64,000 bases of DNA, taken from assembly GCA_963675295.2 (NCBI GenBank), contig CAXXKJ010000002.1, positions 1,216,001 to 1,280,000 on the forward strand, in the 5' to 3' direction. Source of the DNA: a bacterium (GTDB taxonomy: Bacteria > Electryoneota > Electryoneia > Electryoneales > Electryoneaceae). The translations under genes and the position numbers were made by a program. The notes under the pieces were generated by a model. The model ran no database searches. It was not told where the DNA came from and saw only the letters and a program-made list of their open reading frames with translations. Below are positions 33,370-52,391 of the stretch, one piece after another. Positions within the stretch are counted from its first letter, which is position 1. Every line of letters starts with the position of its first letter.

Positions 33370-33635
33370 CAAATGCGCTGTGGTTAGATTCGTATTCAGG
33401 CCAGCAAGGCAATCGCCACCCGTTCTCTTCACGACTCGTTCTCTTCACAATACGGGCGACTCTCCCACGACCGCCGTGGAACGGCGGCGCAAGTTAGCGT
33501 GTGGCTTCAGCCACACGGGACTGGGCGACCGCGACCATCTCTTGTAGATGCTACGAGCGTCCTGTAGGGACGCAGCAATTCACGTCCCTTTGACCAATAT
33601 AATGGAAGAATTTCGTCGTGGCGGGATGAAACAAC

Positions 33636-34491: not shown

Positions 34492-36354
34492 TCACACCTT
34501 CTTCAGTTCTACCGCAAGTTGCGTCACCAGGTGGTCCAGCCGTCGCACGACCGCCTTGACCGTTTCCGGGTCGTTGAGATCGACGCCGGCGCGTTTCAAG
34601 AGTTCCATCGGGTGGTCGCTGCCGCCGGACTTGAGCAACGTCAGGTAGCGGTCCACGACTTCGGCCTTCTCCGTGTCGCCGGACGCCGACTTCATCGCGT
34701 CGAAGATCGCCGCCGAGGACGCGAAGCTGGTCGCGTACTGGTAGACGTAATACGGGCTGTGGAAGAAATGCGGGATGCGTGCCCAGGTGACGTGATACAA
34801 CTCTTCGTGGTCAATGGCGTCGCCGTACCACTCGGTGAGGATGCCGTGGTAGATGTCGCCTAGTACGTCGCTGGTGATCGGCTGCCCGGCCTCCGCCAGC
34901 TTGTGCGCTTCGAGCTCGTAATTGGCGAACAGAGACTGGGTATAGAACGTTCCGGCGATGGTGTCGATCGCGTGCTGCAGCAGCATGATCCGCTGTTCGG
35001 GTGAGGTAGCGTCCGCCAGCAACTGATCGAGCAGCAAGGCTTCGTTCAATGTGCTCGCGACCTCCGCGACGAAGATCGTGTAGCCGGCGTAGGTGAAGGG
35101 CTGGTTCGCGTCCGACAGCTCGGAGTGCATCGCGTGGCCCATCTCATGGGCGAGGGTGAAGACATCGTCCAGCGTGCCGTTGTAGTTCATCAGGATGTAC
35201 GGGTGCACGCCGTACACACTCGCCATGTACCCGCCGGACCGTTTCCCCTCGGTCTCGTAGACATCCACCCAACGATGCTTGAACGCCTCACGCACATGGT
35301 TCTGGTAGTCCTCGCCGAGATGCGCGACGGAGCTGACAATGTGCTGCGTCGCTTCGTCGAAGGTGTAGCGCGTGTCGTGGTCGATCAGCTGTGCGAAACC
35401 GTCGTAGAGGTAATAGTTGTCGAGGCCGAGGGTCTGCTTGCGCAACTGGTGGTAGCGGCGTAACGGCTTCATCCCGTCTATCGCTGCCTCGACCAGCGTG
35501 TGCACGACTGAGGTCGGGATCGCGTGACGGTGCAATTTGCGTTCGAGCACGCTGCCATACCCACGAGCCCGCGCGTTAAACCAGCCGCGTTGCAGGACGC
35601 CGTTGTAGATCGCGGCGTAGGTGTTGCCGAACTGTTTGTAGAGATTGAAATGAGCCTGGAAGACCGTCTGCCGGTCCTCCTGCTTCGGCAACGTGCGCAG
35701 CAGCGAGGAATAGGTGCCGGGGGTGACACGACGAGTGGACCCGTCCGACAGCTCAACCTCGGGGAAGGTCGCGTCCGCCGTGGTCAGCATGGAATAGGTT
35801 TGCGACGGCGACGCGCCGAATTTCGCCGCCAACGCCAGCAGGTGCTCGCCCTTTTCGTCGAGCACGTGTTCCGCCTGACGGAACAGCTCATCGAGGTGGA
35901 ACTTGTACAACGCGAGGTCGCTGTTTTCCTGCAGCCACTGGTTGACCGTTTCCTGCCCGATCTCGATCAGTTCCGGGTCGAACCACGAGGTCGCCGCCGA
36001 GTACCGCGCGGCGAGGTCTTCGACCTGTTGCCGGCGGGCGTTGATCTCGTTGTTCCGCTGGTCGAGGTCGAACGCCAGCCCCGGGTAGTACCACACCCGG
36101 TCGAACAACCGGCCGGCGTCGTCGGACAGCTTGAGGAATCCAAGCAGTTTCTCGGCGCCCTGGGTGATCGTACCCTGAAACGCGGCCAGCTGGCCGACAA
36201 ATGTCTCCAGCTTTTCCCGGTCCTGCTCCCAACCGGACCAGTCGTCGTAGATGTCGTTCAGGTTCCAGGTGTAACGTGGATCGATCTCACCTCGCGCGCG
36301 TGGACCGCTCTCGATTGCGGGGGACTGGCTGTGGAATGCAACTGGGACTCGCAT
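34492..36354 (-). CDS. pepF: Oligoendopeptidase F (M3B)
   Basis: WNLNDIY, GKRSGGY, HPYILMNY, TLAHEMGHAMHS, FVAEVAS, WARIPHF, YYVYQYAT. Confidence 0.95.
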   Translation of the reverse strand: MRVPVAFHSQSPAIESGPRARGEIDPRYTWNLNDIYDDWSGWEQDREKLETFVGQLAAFQGTITQGAEKLLGFLKLSDDAGRLFDRVWYYPGLAFDLDQRNNEINARRQQVEDLAARYSAATSWFDPELIEIGQETVNQWLQENSDLALYKFHLDELFRQAEHVLDEKGEHLLALAAKFGASPSQTYSMLTTADATFPEVELSDGSTRRVTPGTYSSLLRTLPKQEDRQTVFQAHFNLYKQFGNTYAAIYNGVLQRGWFNARARGYGSVLERKLHRHAIPTSVVHTLVEAAIDGMKPLRRYHQLRKQTLGLDNYYLYDGFAQLIDHDTRYTFDEATQHIVSSVAHLGEDYQNHVREAFKHRWVDVYETEGKRSGGYMASVYGVHPYILMNYNGTLDDVFTLAHEMGHAMHSELSDANQPFTYAGYTIFVAEVASTLNEALLLDQLLADATSPEQRIMLLQHAIDTIAGTFYTQSLFANYELEAHKLAEAGQPITSDVLGDIYHGILTEWYGDAIDHEELYHVTWARIPHFFHSPYYVYQYATSFASSAAIFDAMKSASGDTEKAEVVDRYLTLLKSGGSDHPMELLKRAGVDLNDPETVKAVVRRLDHLVTQLAVELKKV

Positions 36355-36514
36355 GGTCTTTTCCGGTAAGCTGGCTGCCGAATTGTGGCTGTATCTTGTC
36401 GTCACTGCGGTGGCAAGGAGGCTCCCGCGAATCCCGGGAACAAGCCGCCGCCGCGGGAATGCACGGACTCCCGAGGTTTATCGTGCGTCAATCTGACCCT
36501 GACACGAGGCAGCG

Positions 36515-37219
36515 ATGGACTCGTTCCCCTTCACCGTGATCGACCTTACCCACCCGATCGGCCCGGAGACACCCCAGTGGCCGGGCGATCCAGACACCCG
36601 CCGTGAACCGCACGCCGGCCTGCCATCCCACGGCTACGCATTGAACGCGTGGCGGATCGGTGAACACACCGGGACGCATCTCGGCGCGCCGGGGCATCGT
36701 GTCCGGGACGGCGCAACAGTTGACCAGCTGACGGCGGATCAATTGGTCTGTCCGCTGGTGGTGGTCACGGCCGGGTTGCGCGCGGAAGACGGGCTGATGG
36801 TGACGGTCGCGGATCTGCTGGCGTTCGAAACGAAACACGGCGCGATCCCGGCGGGGGCGTGTGTCGCGTTGCATACCGGATGGGACAGGCGTTGGCCGGA
36901 TGCGAACCGGGTGTTCGAGCGCGGTACAGACGGCGGTTTCCTCTGGCCGGGCTGGTCACCGGAGGCGGTGGAGTGGCTGGTGGGTGAACGCAAGGCCGGG
37001 GTGATCGCCACCGACGCGCCCGACATCGGTGCGGGGGATGACAGCGACCTCACGGCCGGGTTGGTCTGCGCCGAACACGGGTTGCTGCATGTGGAAAACC
37101 TGGCGAACCTCGTCCGTGTGTCACCGTGTGGCTCGTTTATCGTCCTCGGCGCTCTGCCGTTTCGAGACGGTTCGGGCAGCCCCGTCCGCGCACTCGGGCT
37201 AACGCCGAACACTCCATAA
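36515..37219 (+). CDS. Cyclase family (kynurenine formamidase-like) protein
   Basis: DLTHPI...WPGDP, EHTGTHLGAPGH, HVENLANL, GSGSPVRA. Confidence 0.88.
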   Translation: MDSFPFTVIDLTHPIGPETPQWPGDPDTRREPHAGLPSHGYALNAWRIGEHTGTHLGAPGHRVRDGATVDQLTADQLVCPLVVVTAGLRAEDGLMVTVADLLAFETKHGAIPAGACVALHTGWDRRWPDANRVFERGTDGGFLWPGWSPEAVEWLVGERKAGVIATDAPDIGAGDDSDLTAGLVCAEHGLLHVENLANLVRVSPCGSFIVLGALPFRDGSGSPVRALGLTPNTP

Positions 37220-37474
37220 ACCACGGAATACACGGAATAAACGGAAAGAAAAACAACATCAAAACCTCTGAGTCCACGAAAGACACGAAAAAAAACGAAA
37301 ATAAAACCTGAAAAAATATTTAAACAAATAATAAGATAGATATAACTGGAAACTAGGTGGTATGGAATTTTAGCATCTAGTAGTTTCTGTTATCTTTTCT
37401 TTCGTCTTTTTTCGTGCCTTTCGCGGTAAGAGAGAGGTGTTTCAGTTTCCGTTTATTCCGTGTATTCCGTGGTT
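37219..37474. mobile_element. AT-rich nested foldback (MITE-like) element with 29-bp perfect terminal inverted repeats
   Basis: AACCACGGAATACACGGAATAAACGGAAA (37219-37247) and its exact reverse complement (37446-37474); inner imperfect IRs; no transposase. Confidence 0.6.
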
Positions 37475-37489
37475 AAGCGTCTGTTGTGT

Positions 37490-37684
37490 AGAGAGAGAAG
37501 CGGCCCGAGGGGGGGACTCGGACCGCGAGGGGATGCCTCATGCGAGGCATATGGCTGGGTTTCCCCAACCAAATCCAGGTACTTGAGTGCCACTTCTGTT
37601 TCATGCATGAGGGGGGACATGCACGAGATGAAGCCAAGAGATTTCAACCATTCTGCGGAGGTCAGGTTGTTCTGAAACACTCAC
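37490..37684 (-). ncRNA. Candidate sigma54-dependent sRNA with C-rich loops
   Basis: Four stable hairpins, loops UCCCCCCU/GAAA/GCAU/UCCCCCC, terminal hairpin followed by a pyrimidine run; sigma54 motif directly upstream. Confidence 0.55.
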
Positions 37685-37694
37685 CCGGATAAGT

Positions 37695-37711
37695 AGCAAC
37701 TAACATGCCAA
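37695..37711 (-). promoter_or_regulatory. sigma54 (-24/-12) promoter
   Basis: TTGGCATGTTAGTTGCT versus consensus YTGGCACG-N4-TTGCW; one mismatch and exact spacing. Confidence 0.7.
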
Positions 37712-37825
37712 AGTTGAGTTTTCGCGTCAATGGTGGGTTCCTGGACCGGGGGGTGGGAAACTTGTCTTGAAAGGATACAATCGCTACGTTTCTCCACCAT
37801 CACAGGGGAGGGGAGGATTCGCGAG

Positions 37826-38890
37826 ATGAAACAGAATCGCAGGGAGTTCATCGGCACCTCTGCCGCGGTTGCGGCGGGGCTGACATTATCGTCCGGCTTG
37901 CCACAGGTTGCGCGGGCGAAAGGCATGACCGAATCCCGCACCGGTCGTGGTCCGATCGCGGTGGCTTCGGGGAACGGGGTCGAGGCGGTGCGTCGCGCGG
38001 TGGAAGGGATGACCTCGGGCGAGGACGCGCTCGACGCTGCCATCGCTGGGGTGAACATCGTCGAAGCTGATCCGGACGACATCACCGTCGGGTACGGCGG
38101 CCTGCCCAATGAACTTGGCGTGGTCGAACTGGACAGCGCGGTGATGCACGGCCCGACGCATCGTGCCGGCGCGGTCGCCAGCATCCGCAACATCATGCAC
38201 CCCTCGAAGGTGGCGAACCTGGTGCGTAAGACCACCGATCACGTGTTGCTGGTTGGCCAGGGCGCGCTCGATTTCGCGAAGATGCACGGCTTCAAGGAAC
38301 AGGATCTGCTCACCGACAAGTCCCGTGAGATCTGGCTGTTGTGGAAGCAGAAGATGTCGGACGCCGACGACTGGCTTCCGCCGCCGAAGGAGGAGGTCGA
38401 TCCGGGCCTGTGGAACATGGTCGAACGTTGGACCGGCACCATCCACCTCAGCGCGCGCGACACCTCGGGCGACATGTCCTGCGTCACCACCACAAGCGGC
38501 CTGTTCTTCAAGATTCCGGGCCGGGTTGGCGACAGCCCGATCATCGGCGCCGGCTTGTACTGCGACAACGACTACGGCACGGCGGGCTCGACCGGACGTG
38601 GCGAGGCCAATCTGCAGAATCTCTGCAGCTACCAGGCGGTGGAGTTCATGCGGCAGGGACTGGGCCCGACCGAAGCCGGGCTCGAGGTGCTGAAACGTGT
38701 CGCGGAAACGACCAAACGCGCCGACCTGCTGGACGAACAGGGCCGGCCCAACTTCGGCCTCAGCTTCTACCTGATCGACAAGCAGGGCCGGTACGGTGCC
38801 GCGACCATGTGGGGACCGTCCGAGTATGCCGTCGCCGACGCCGACGGGGCCCGCAAGGAAGAAGCGGCGTACCTGTTCGAACGCGACTAA
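37826..38890 (+). CDS. Tat-exported N(4)-(beta-N-acetylglucosaminyl)-L-asparaginase-like Ntn hydrolase
   Basis: RREF Tat signal; VGYGGLPN, ELDSAVM, autocleavage G|TI, TTTSG..FKIPGRVGDSPIIGAG, TGRGE. Confidence 0.92.
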   Translation: MKQNRREFIGTSAAVAAGLTLSSGLPQVARAKGMTESRTGRGPIAVASGNGVEAVRRAVEGMTSGEDALDAAIAGVNIVEADPDDITVGYGGLPNELGVVELDSAVMHGPTHRAGAVASIRNIMHPSKVANLVRKTTDHVLLVGQGALDFAKMHGFKEQDLLTDKSREIWLLWKQKMSDADDWLPPPKEEVDPGLWNMVERWTGTIHLSARDTSGDMSCVTTTSGLFFKIPGRVGDSPIIGAGLYCDNDYGTAGSTGRGEANLQNLCSYQAVEFMRQGLGPTEAGLEVLKRVAETTKRADLLDEQGRPNFGLSFYLIDKQGRYGAATMWGPSEYAVADADGARKEEAAYLFERD

Positions 38891-52121: not shown

Positions 52122-52391
52122 TGACCTGAGACGTGTGACCTGAGACCTGAGACCTGAGTCTTGAGACTTGAGTTCTGAGTTATGAAATGGTGATACCGAA
52201 GTGGTGTCATTCTGAACGGAACGAAGAGAAGTGAAGAATCTACCTGAAGATACGGGAGAGGTACACCGTCGATCCGTAGCCGGCGCATCCAGCAGATCCT
52301 TCATCCGATACACCCGGATTCAGGATGACACACCGACTATCGACTACCGACCACCGATTACCGACTACCGATTACCGGCCACCGGCCACCG
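52122..52391. repeat. Heptamer arrays flanking a TGTCATTCTGA...TCAGGATGACA inverted-repeat element
   Basis: (TGAGACC)n 52122-52185; IR element 52205-52330; (ACCGACT/ACCGATT)n 52332-52391. Confidence 0.75.

Follow-up and report, generated by a model that had tools for sequence, protein, structure and literature searches.

A candidate sigma-54-controlled small RNA with conserved C-rich loops beside an asparaginase gene in an Electryoneota genome

The window analysed here is a stretch of 64,000 nucleotides from a bacterium of the phylum Electryoneota (family Electryoneaceae; GenBank assembly GCA_963675295.2, contig CAXXKJ010000002.1, positions 1,216,001 to 1,280,000 of the forward strand), and positions given below count from its first letter. 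Its minus strand carries, at 37490-37711, a candidate gene for a small RNA (sRNA) that in all likelihood is stand-alone, conserved, structured and non-coding. Judging from a promoter element kept in its homologues, transcription of this gene is very probably sigma-54-dependent, and models of its fold and pairing suggest that the product probably acts as a base-pairing regulator of the anti-Shine-Dalgarno (anti-SD) type. The reading as a whole, a chaperone-independent sRNA that is controlled by sigma-54 and an enhancer-binding protein (EBP) and pairs with G-rich Shine-Dalgarno (SD) regions, is given somewhat better than even chances. The RNA had not been catalogued before; its kind is already known, both as C-rich-loop sRNA and as sigma-54 sRNA, and it does not constitute a new category.

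All elements of the gene are read on the minus strand, where sequence inspection located every motif that an initial annotation of this DNA had listed. From 5' to 3' they are:

37711-37695, minus strand: predicted sigma-54 (-24/-12) promoter TTGGCATGTTAGTTGCT, with GG at 37709/37708 and GC at 37697/37696
37684-37490, minus strand: predicted sRNA transcript of ~195 nt, its 5' end taken from promoter geometry and its 3' end from the terminator
37682-37585, minus strand: 5' domain closed by helix P1 (GAGUGUU 37682-37676 with GGCACUC 37591-37585), enclosing ACCUCC and P2
37662-37657, minus strand: unpaired ACCUCC (alignments and unpaired-probability profile)
37626-37601, minus strand: hairpin P2, 9-bp stem 37626-37618/37609-37601, loop UCCCCCCU at 37617-37610 (sequence and ViennaRNA)
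37571-37552, minus strand: hairpin P3, 8-bp stem with a GAAA loop (ViennaRNA)
37550-37533, minus strand: hairpin P4, 7-bp stem AUGCCUC[GCAU]GAGGCAU (ViennaRNA)
37532-37527, minus strand: single-stranded C-rich linker CCCCUC (alignments and unpaired-probability profile)
37526-37500, minus strand: intrinsic terminator, 10-bp GC-rich stem, loop UCCCCCC at 37516-37510 (terminator scan)
37499-37490, minus strand: terminator tail UUCUCUCUCU, a weak U-tract

Folding with ViennaRNA yielded exactly the hairpins of the initial annotation plus the long closing helix GAGUGUU/GGCACUC, which had been missed there, and a terminator scan also picked the terminal hairpin. The minimum free energy (MFE) was -83.1 kcal/mol, compared with -60.8±4.4 for 200 dinucleotide shuffles (z -5.08), none of which was as stable. 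The folds leave four C-rich stretches single-stranded: the CUCC of the 5' domain, the P2 loop UCCCCCCU, the UCCCCUC linker, and the UCCCCCC terminator loop. Same-strand intergenic pairs of runs of six or more C lying at most 150 nt apart number 9 genome-wide, and two of these 9 are at this locus. Rfam 15 returned no family for the RNA at gathering thresholds across the window, and raising the limit to an E value of 10 on 37000-38000 gave just noise and matches to an adjacent AT-rich repeat, which upholds the earlier description of the RNA as undescribed; the covariance models of RsaE (RoxS), 6C, cuckoo and other Rfam families were likewise not matched.

The same architecture is found in relatives. 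G000 denotes the genome analysed, and G001, G003 and G007 the genomes with homologues, of which G001 and G003 belong to the same genus as G000 and G007 to another. Independent MFE folds of the G003 and G007 copies (z -5.29 and -5.80) showed the architecture of G000. When the four sequences are aligned, standard pairs make up 93.9% of cells compared with 32-48% for slid partners, and in 8 of the 41 pairs both partners have changed, versus 2.8±1.4 such pairs in shuffles, with 0 of 500 shuffles reaching 8. The structure is thus kept in relatives with compensatory changes, a point that had been left to a covariance-model check. These changes are concentrated in P2 and P3: three of the nine P2 pairs change on both sides and the loop stays C-rich (UUCCCCCUUU in G003, UCUCCC/CCCC in G007), and P3 has a different stem sequence in G003 and G007 that still pairs, with double-sided change in 4 of its 8 pairs. 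The G001 copy has an A-U to G-C swap in P2 at 37608/37619, and the same swap occurs in the environmental contigs of the runs X16 and X5. P1 forms in all four sequences, with 5 invariant pairs and two U-A/U-G changes; the GCCUC/GAGGC core of P4 is invariant in all four, its loop becoming CCCC-containing in G007; and the terminator helix is paired throughout, with one compensatory pair and, in G007, a clean U6 tail. The first bases of the RNA (GAGUGUUUCA), the CUCC core of ACCUCC and the UCCCC of the linker are invariant. Overall, the five helices are conserved together with the -24/-12 element between diverged flanks, and all four C-rich stretches are kept and unpaired in the four homologues, while the stems that present them have been rewritten.

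The RNA gene is single-copy in its own 4.8-Mb genome and has a narrow distribution. Among 41 relatives searched at the DNA level, 3 genomes including G000 had the locus; the G001 copy was 94% identical, and only 57 nt of the G003 copy aligned, although full alignment showed the latter to be diverged yet colinear, lying between asparaginase and cyclase genes. A covariance model built from these three sequences (R1) was then run on the 16 genomes of the family, which are the order as well, and gave 4 matches at E<=0.01, the fourth being the G007 copy between pepF and asparaginase. A second model (R2) run on 79 genomes of the phylum found the same four and no more. The pattern scan of one-genome-per-species GTDB contigs returned 27 loci, 3 of them true and in the same genomes. 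Metagenome contigs yielded 0 loci with an RNA-body pattern, and 45 loci with a promoter plus 5' pattern, none a true homologue (best partial match 17.8 bits). Four extra R1 matches at E<=0.1 were rejected on inspection: the one in G006 is a terminator-like hairpin within a coding frame, the one in G008 covers little beyond the promoter, and the two in G012 are short partial alignments without C-rich hairpins or terminator. All but one of the 16 family genomes have the asparaginase gene, and the promoter and RNA lie upstream of it only in the four known carriers. In G002, of the same genus, another gene stands in the place of the RNA, and an apparent relic there (GAGTGT...ACACTC) was rejected, as local alignment outside the block next to the asparaginase gene scored 23-26 compared with 23-25±4-5 in shuffles. 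With carriers in 4 of 79 genomes, from two genera of one family, the RNA gene appears to be lineage-specific, either young or patchy.

Public metatranscriptomes contain sequence of the RNA. Two runs from two studies provided a 151-nt contig covering 37517-37665 and a 169-nt contig covering 37504-37672, both wholly inside the predicted RNA and without loose ends. Apart from a repeat resembling a miniature inverted-repeat transposable element (MITE), there were no other contigs from these two runs on the 1401 bases compared. Further runs (X6-X14, X17-X19) matched small shares of the stretch and do not count towards this evidence. For one of the RNA runs, DNA from the same sample was also sequenced, and it gave a contig that extends from 37446 to 38400, through the asparaginase gene. 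Taken as a hint, these observations would put the RNA far above its neighbours in abundance. The initial annotation had proposed a transcript of the minus strand starting near 37684; contigs confined to the RNA body speak for it, as a hint and not as proof, given that they show neither its strand nor its ends.

Sigma-54 control was assessed from the promoter element and the genome. TGGCAT-N5-TTGCT lies at 37710-37695, and its GG and GC doublets are separated by exactly 10 bp, so that the start is predicted at ~37684; the near-consensus motif previously reported for 37711-37695 is confirmed in the sequence, and the predicted start agrees with the one given there. TGGCA-N6-TTGC is invariant and in register in all four homologues, three of which have CTGGCA-N6-TTGC and G007 the full TGGCAC-N5-TTGC. 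The flanks diverge on both sides, and neither the 12-13 nt between promoter and RNA nor the upstream DNA is conserved. The rpoN gene, whose presence had been named as a check, was found (Sigma54_DBD, 177.3 bits, in a 491-aa open frame; C2:3489852-3490325), as were 25 Sigma54_activat matches, ~20 of them strong (>200 bits) EBPs. A sigma-54 promoter would imply that the RNA needs an enhancer-binding activator which answers some signal.

In the proposed mechanism, the sigma-54 promoter would start minus-strand transcription at ~37684 and the GC-rich terminator hairpin 37526-37500 would stop it. The scaffold of the transcript (closed 5' domain, two short hairpins and terminator) would keep the four C-rich stretches single-stranded, and these, which mimic the anti-SD, most likely pair with GGGGG/GGAGG ribosome-binding sites (RBSs) of several mRNAs, which would block translation initiation of those mRNAs. 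Hfq would not be needed because G-C-rich seeds pair strongly; a search of the genome (92.8% complete) found neither the Hfq nor the CsrA family.

Candidate targets were predicted using gene and start calls from my own crude caller. The commonest pentamers upstream of called starts include GGAGG, GGGGG, and GGGGA, a ranking that is biased by the caller itself. An accessibility-weighted scan of the unpaired RNA windows against 3223 start regions placed the best sites at -16 to -7, on SDs with GGGGGG or GGAGG. The target predictions reported are those of this loop-window version only: plain duplexfold gave long meaningless duplexes with a background of -57±8, and a variant combining subopt with accessibility missed the short loop duplexes, and both were rejected. 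Among the top 60 predictions, 24 were at C-run sites and Pfam was searched with 20 of these, of which 5 matched Por_Secre_tail, the mark of proteins secreted by the type IX secretion system (T9SS). The genome has at least 150 Por_Secre_tail proteins (150 scored of 421 first-look candidates), and therefore no T9SS enrichment is claimed.

Several observations weigh against the reading of a sigma-54-controlled anti-SD regulator. The ranking of SD regions is generic, as any C-run matches SD-like G-runs, and the target predictions showed no conserved target and no standout functional class. Among the Sigma54_activat matches there was no EBP gene within ~45 kb of the RNA, no conserved upstream activator site was found among the homologues, and the DNA upstream of the G007 promoter is filled by a genome-wide repeat resembling repetitive extragenic palindromic (REP) elements. 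The terminator U-tract is poor in three of the four homologues. Covariation was scored on four sequences, two of them 94% identical and hence effectively three independent ones, in an alignment fitted to the model, and its statistics are thin. The expression evidence consists of assembled contigs, which show neither strand, ends nor level. Finally, the RNA is absent from the same-genus G002 and from 12 of the 16 family genomes, and is consequently dispensable.

A stronger form of the anti-SD reading, a multi-site 'SD sponge' triggered through sigma-54, is given an outside chance. Here, four or five anti-SD mimics per molecule, together with a high abundance in sediment metatranscriptomes, would transiently mask mRNAs with extra-strong G-run RBSs, and the masked set may include the very large set of T9SS-secreted proteins. 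If this were true, the RNA would be the post-transcriptional output of an orphan EBP pathway in a phylum without Hfq and CsrA.

The exposed C-rich motifs could instead bind a KH- or RRM-type protein, which the sigma-54-induced RNA would sequester. CsrB and RsmZ sequester CsrA in this manner, and CrcZ sequesters Hfq/Crc. One short motif present in several loop and linker copies on a rigid scaffold, and kept as the stems vary, would suit such a protein-titrating sponge, as would the lack of a convincing conserved mRNA target and a sigma-54 control that recalls CrcZ. However, the missing CsrA and Hfq count against it, the motifs are exact anti-SD mimics in a genome that uses G-rich SDs, and I know of no bacterial protein that reads UCCCC motifs. 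Protein titration is accordingly considered unlikely.

A slightly smaller probability is assigned to a real sRNA with another type of promoter, in which case the GG-N10-GC element would be kept for other reasons or as regulatory DNA of the RNA or its neighbour. The strict motif TGGCA[CT]-N5-TTGC has 17 sites in the 4.8-Mb genome, which is no more than the 14-48 expected from a scaled Markov model, so the presence of the motif alone proves nothing. No upstream activator site or nearby EBP stands out, the promoters of this phylum are uncharacterised, and coverage by the RNA contigs ends 12-19 nt before the predicted +1 is reached, which leaves room for a different start. Against this, in all four homologues the motif keeps both its bases and its spacing to the conserved 5' end as neighbouring bases diverge, and no sigma-70-like promoter was detected in 36400-38000. 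Moreover, the crude gene calls leave 18.9% of the genome intergenic, and this fraction contains 15 of the 17 strict motifs and 27 of the 38 sites that differ from TGGCAC-N5-TTGCA by no more than one base, an enrichment which argues that such motifs in intergenic DNA are mostly real promoters here. Most of these intergenic sites lie 30-200 nt ahead of a gene; the site of the RNA has no same-strand gene downstream for 1340 nt.

Two kinds of repeated sequence came to light alongside the promoter analysis. The 14-mer GTTCAGGATGACAC, which is repeated upstream of the G007 promoter, was considered as an activator site and rejected as a dispersed repeat: counted with at most one mismatch, this REP-like element occurs 712 times in G007, 104 times in G003 and 69 times in G000, and the reversed control 0 times. 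It is often tandem, with 19-21 bp or ~80 bp spacing, fills the spacer from asparaginase to RNA promoter in G007 (locus L015, 1750-2101), and occurs in the window near 52204 and 52318 (C2:1268204, 1268318). The palindromic motif TGGCACATATCTGGCA has three intergenic copies within 14 kb of G000 outside the window (C2:1686111, 1697207, 1699573), with similar sites at C2:651478 and 633957, and looks like a binding-site family rather than a set of sigma-54 promoters.

The neighbourhood of the RNA was as previously claimed, with Pfam identifying the divergent asparaginase-family gene and pepF nearby:

37826-38890, plus strand: Asparaginase_2 family gene, divergent neighbour (frame open from 37730; Pfam 1.8e-57)
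36515-37219, plus strand: putative cyclase, convergent to the RNA, between RNA and pepF
34492-36405, minus strand, as the RNA: pepF-type oligoendopeptidase (Peptidase_M3; Pfam)
37221-37472: AT-rich MITE-like hairpin repeat of ~250 bp with inverted repeats, just past the terminator and outside the RNA

The true start of the asparaginase gene is 37826, where a twin-arginine-like signal (MKQNRREF...) begins behind the G-rich SD GGGGAGGGGAGG. The RNA gene adjoins this divergent gene in all four genomes that carry it, and in G007 pepF follows directly downstream on the same strand after ~290 nt (locus L015). Conserved synteny with asparaginase and pepF is the one pointer to a nitrogen/peptide-use role, which it may suggest.

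The same synteny is what a cis element would predict, either a terminator-containing leader for read-through into pepF, as the G007 arrangement could indicate, or a dedicated regulator of the asparaginase mRNA that pairs over its SD and start codon. For the second version, in G000 the RNA can pair over 11 bp with the stretch spanning the asparaginase AUG, with additional C-run/G-run pairs and a full duplex energy of -76.6 compared with -57.9±8.0 for other start regions, which 0 of 100 shuffles reached. However, the extended pairing is seen in G000 and G001 and not in G003 or G007: it was worse than 75% of the background in G003, 77 of 100 shuffles were as good in G007, and the asparaginase start region ranks 1105 of 3223 once accessibility is included. 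It was thus rejected as a conserved target. The convergent cyclase separates the RNA from pepF in G000, G001, and G003 (joined by the MITE-like repeat in the first two), and there can be no leader there. On balance, a cis element is held to be less probable again than a different promoter type.

The least tenable alternative, a small protein encoded by the 75-aa open reading frame (ORF) at 37453-37680 or by a shorter peptide frame, is refuted at the level of conservation and given next to no weight: the frame runs uninterrupted in G000 and G001, but the homologous stretch of G003 has stops in all three frames, G007 keeps an open frame at 69% G+C with unrelated amino acids, the homologues differ by indels whose lengths do not fit multiples of three, and Pfam gave no match for the ORF. 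Protein-level conservation of this frame had been raised as a possible refutation of the RNA, and by these comparisons the locus is, as far as its sequences tell, not protein-coding. None of the four refuting outcomes named in the initial annotation was borne out.

The preferred reading, an sRNA that pairs with SDs through exposed C-runs, has well-known relatives in kind. To judge from parts of their published descriptions, the S. aureus RsaE/RoxS and UCCC-motif Rsa RNAs (PMC2790875) and the actinobacterial 6C RNA (PMC6486639) similarly present unpaired C-rich motifs in loops or linkers, and are likewise presumed to pair directly with RBSs without Hfq. Unlike RsaE/RoxS and 6C, the RNA described here is longer (~195 nt), has a closed multi-helix 5' domain, comes from a different phylum, and has no Rfam match. 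To my knowledge, no sigma-54 promoter has been described for the RsaE/RoxS, UCCC-motif or 6C RNAs. On the promoter side, NrsZ, CrcZ, and Pxr are further sigma-54-dependent sRNAs, and an orphan -24/-12 promoter ahead of a short terminator-ended non-coding RNA is shared with the sigma-54/EBP-dependent GlmY (PMC3045617), Burkholderia NcS25 (PMC10117139), and Qrr1-5 (PMC3730234), as far as the sections used of those papers go. The RNA is not homologous to any of these six (no Rfam match); as a group they use Hfq, RapZ or Crc as partners, and multiple anti-SD C-runs are not their hallmark.

Two further comparisons concern the motif itself. Alphaproteobacterial RNAs of the cuckoo/CcsR type have CCUCC-like anti-SD hairpin loops, occur in tandem copies and are built as a defined two-hairpin unit. 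The present RNA resembles them in placing anti-SD motifs in hairpin loops, and differs in being single-copy, in its architecture and in having no Rfam match. It also resembles the CsrB/RsmZ and CrcZ sponges, CrcZ being sigma-54-dependent as well, in repeating a short motif on a structured scaffold; in contrast to them its motif is C-rich and not GGA or A-rich, and CsrA and Hfq were not found.

Almost nothing is known of RNA regulators in this phylum. A literature search found nothing on its sRNAs, and a table in a 2022 survey gives Calditrichaeota just one annotated sRNA (PMC9029176). The RNA would offer the phylum a first tractable riboregulator, whose input would be sigma-54 with an activator and whose predicted output is the masking of G-rich RBSs, and it would add one independent lineage to the recurrent use of C-rich loops for translational control by RNA. 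As it is seen in sediment metatranscriptomes, it may further serve as an in situ marker of physiological state.

Other observations concern the DNA on either side of the RNA. The MITE-like repeat at 37221-37472 has 35% G+C and 48-nt terminal inverted repeats, and 42 matches (full or partial, both strands) in its own genome; it adjoins the RNA in G001 too and is absent in G003. It attracts spurious sub-threshold Rfam matches to plant miRNA precursors and occurs in one RNA-library contig. On the other side, a block at 37758-37825 (GAGAAACGTA.CGATTGTATCC...CAAGACAAG, minus strand) upstream of the asparaginase start is common to G000, G003, and G002 (loci L049 and L050). Shared as it is with the RNA-less G002, where it is followed by the palindrome CAAGACA-N5-TGTCTTG, it is probably the promoter or leader of the asparaginase gene itself. 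The sequence AUGAAACAGAA within the RNA (37594-37604) is identical to the opening 11 nt of the asparaginase reading frame (37826-37836), forming an 11-nt perfect inverted DNA repeat that is not kept in G003 and is probably due to chance. Elsewhere in the window there are T9SS-cargo genes, for example at C2:1263278, 1272746, and 1274789, and the sole Rfam match in its 64 kb is an Acido-Lenti-1 RNA (RF01687) on the minus strand at 33472-33517, with 40.5 bits compared with a gathering threshold of 37.

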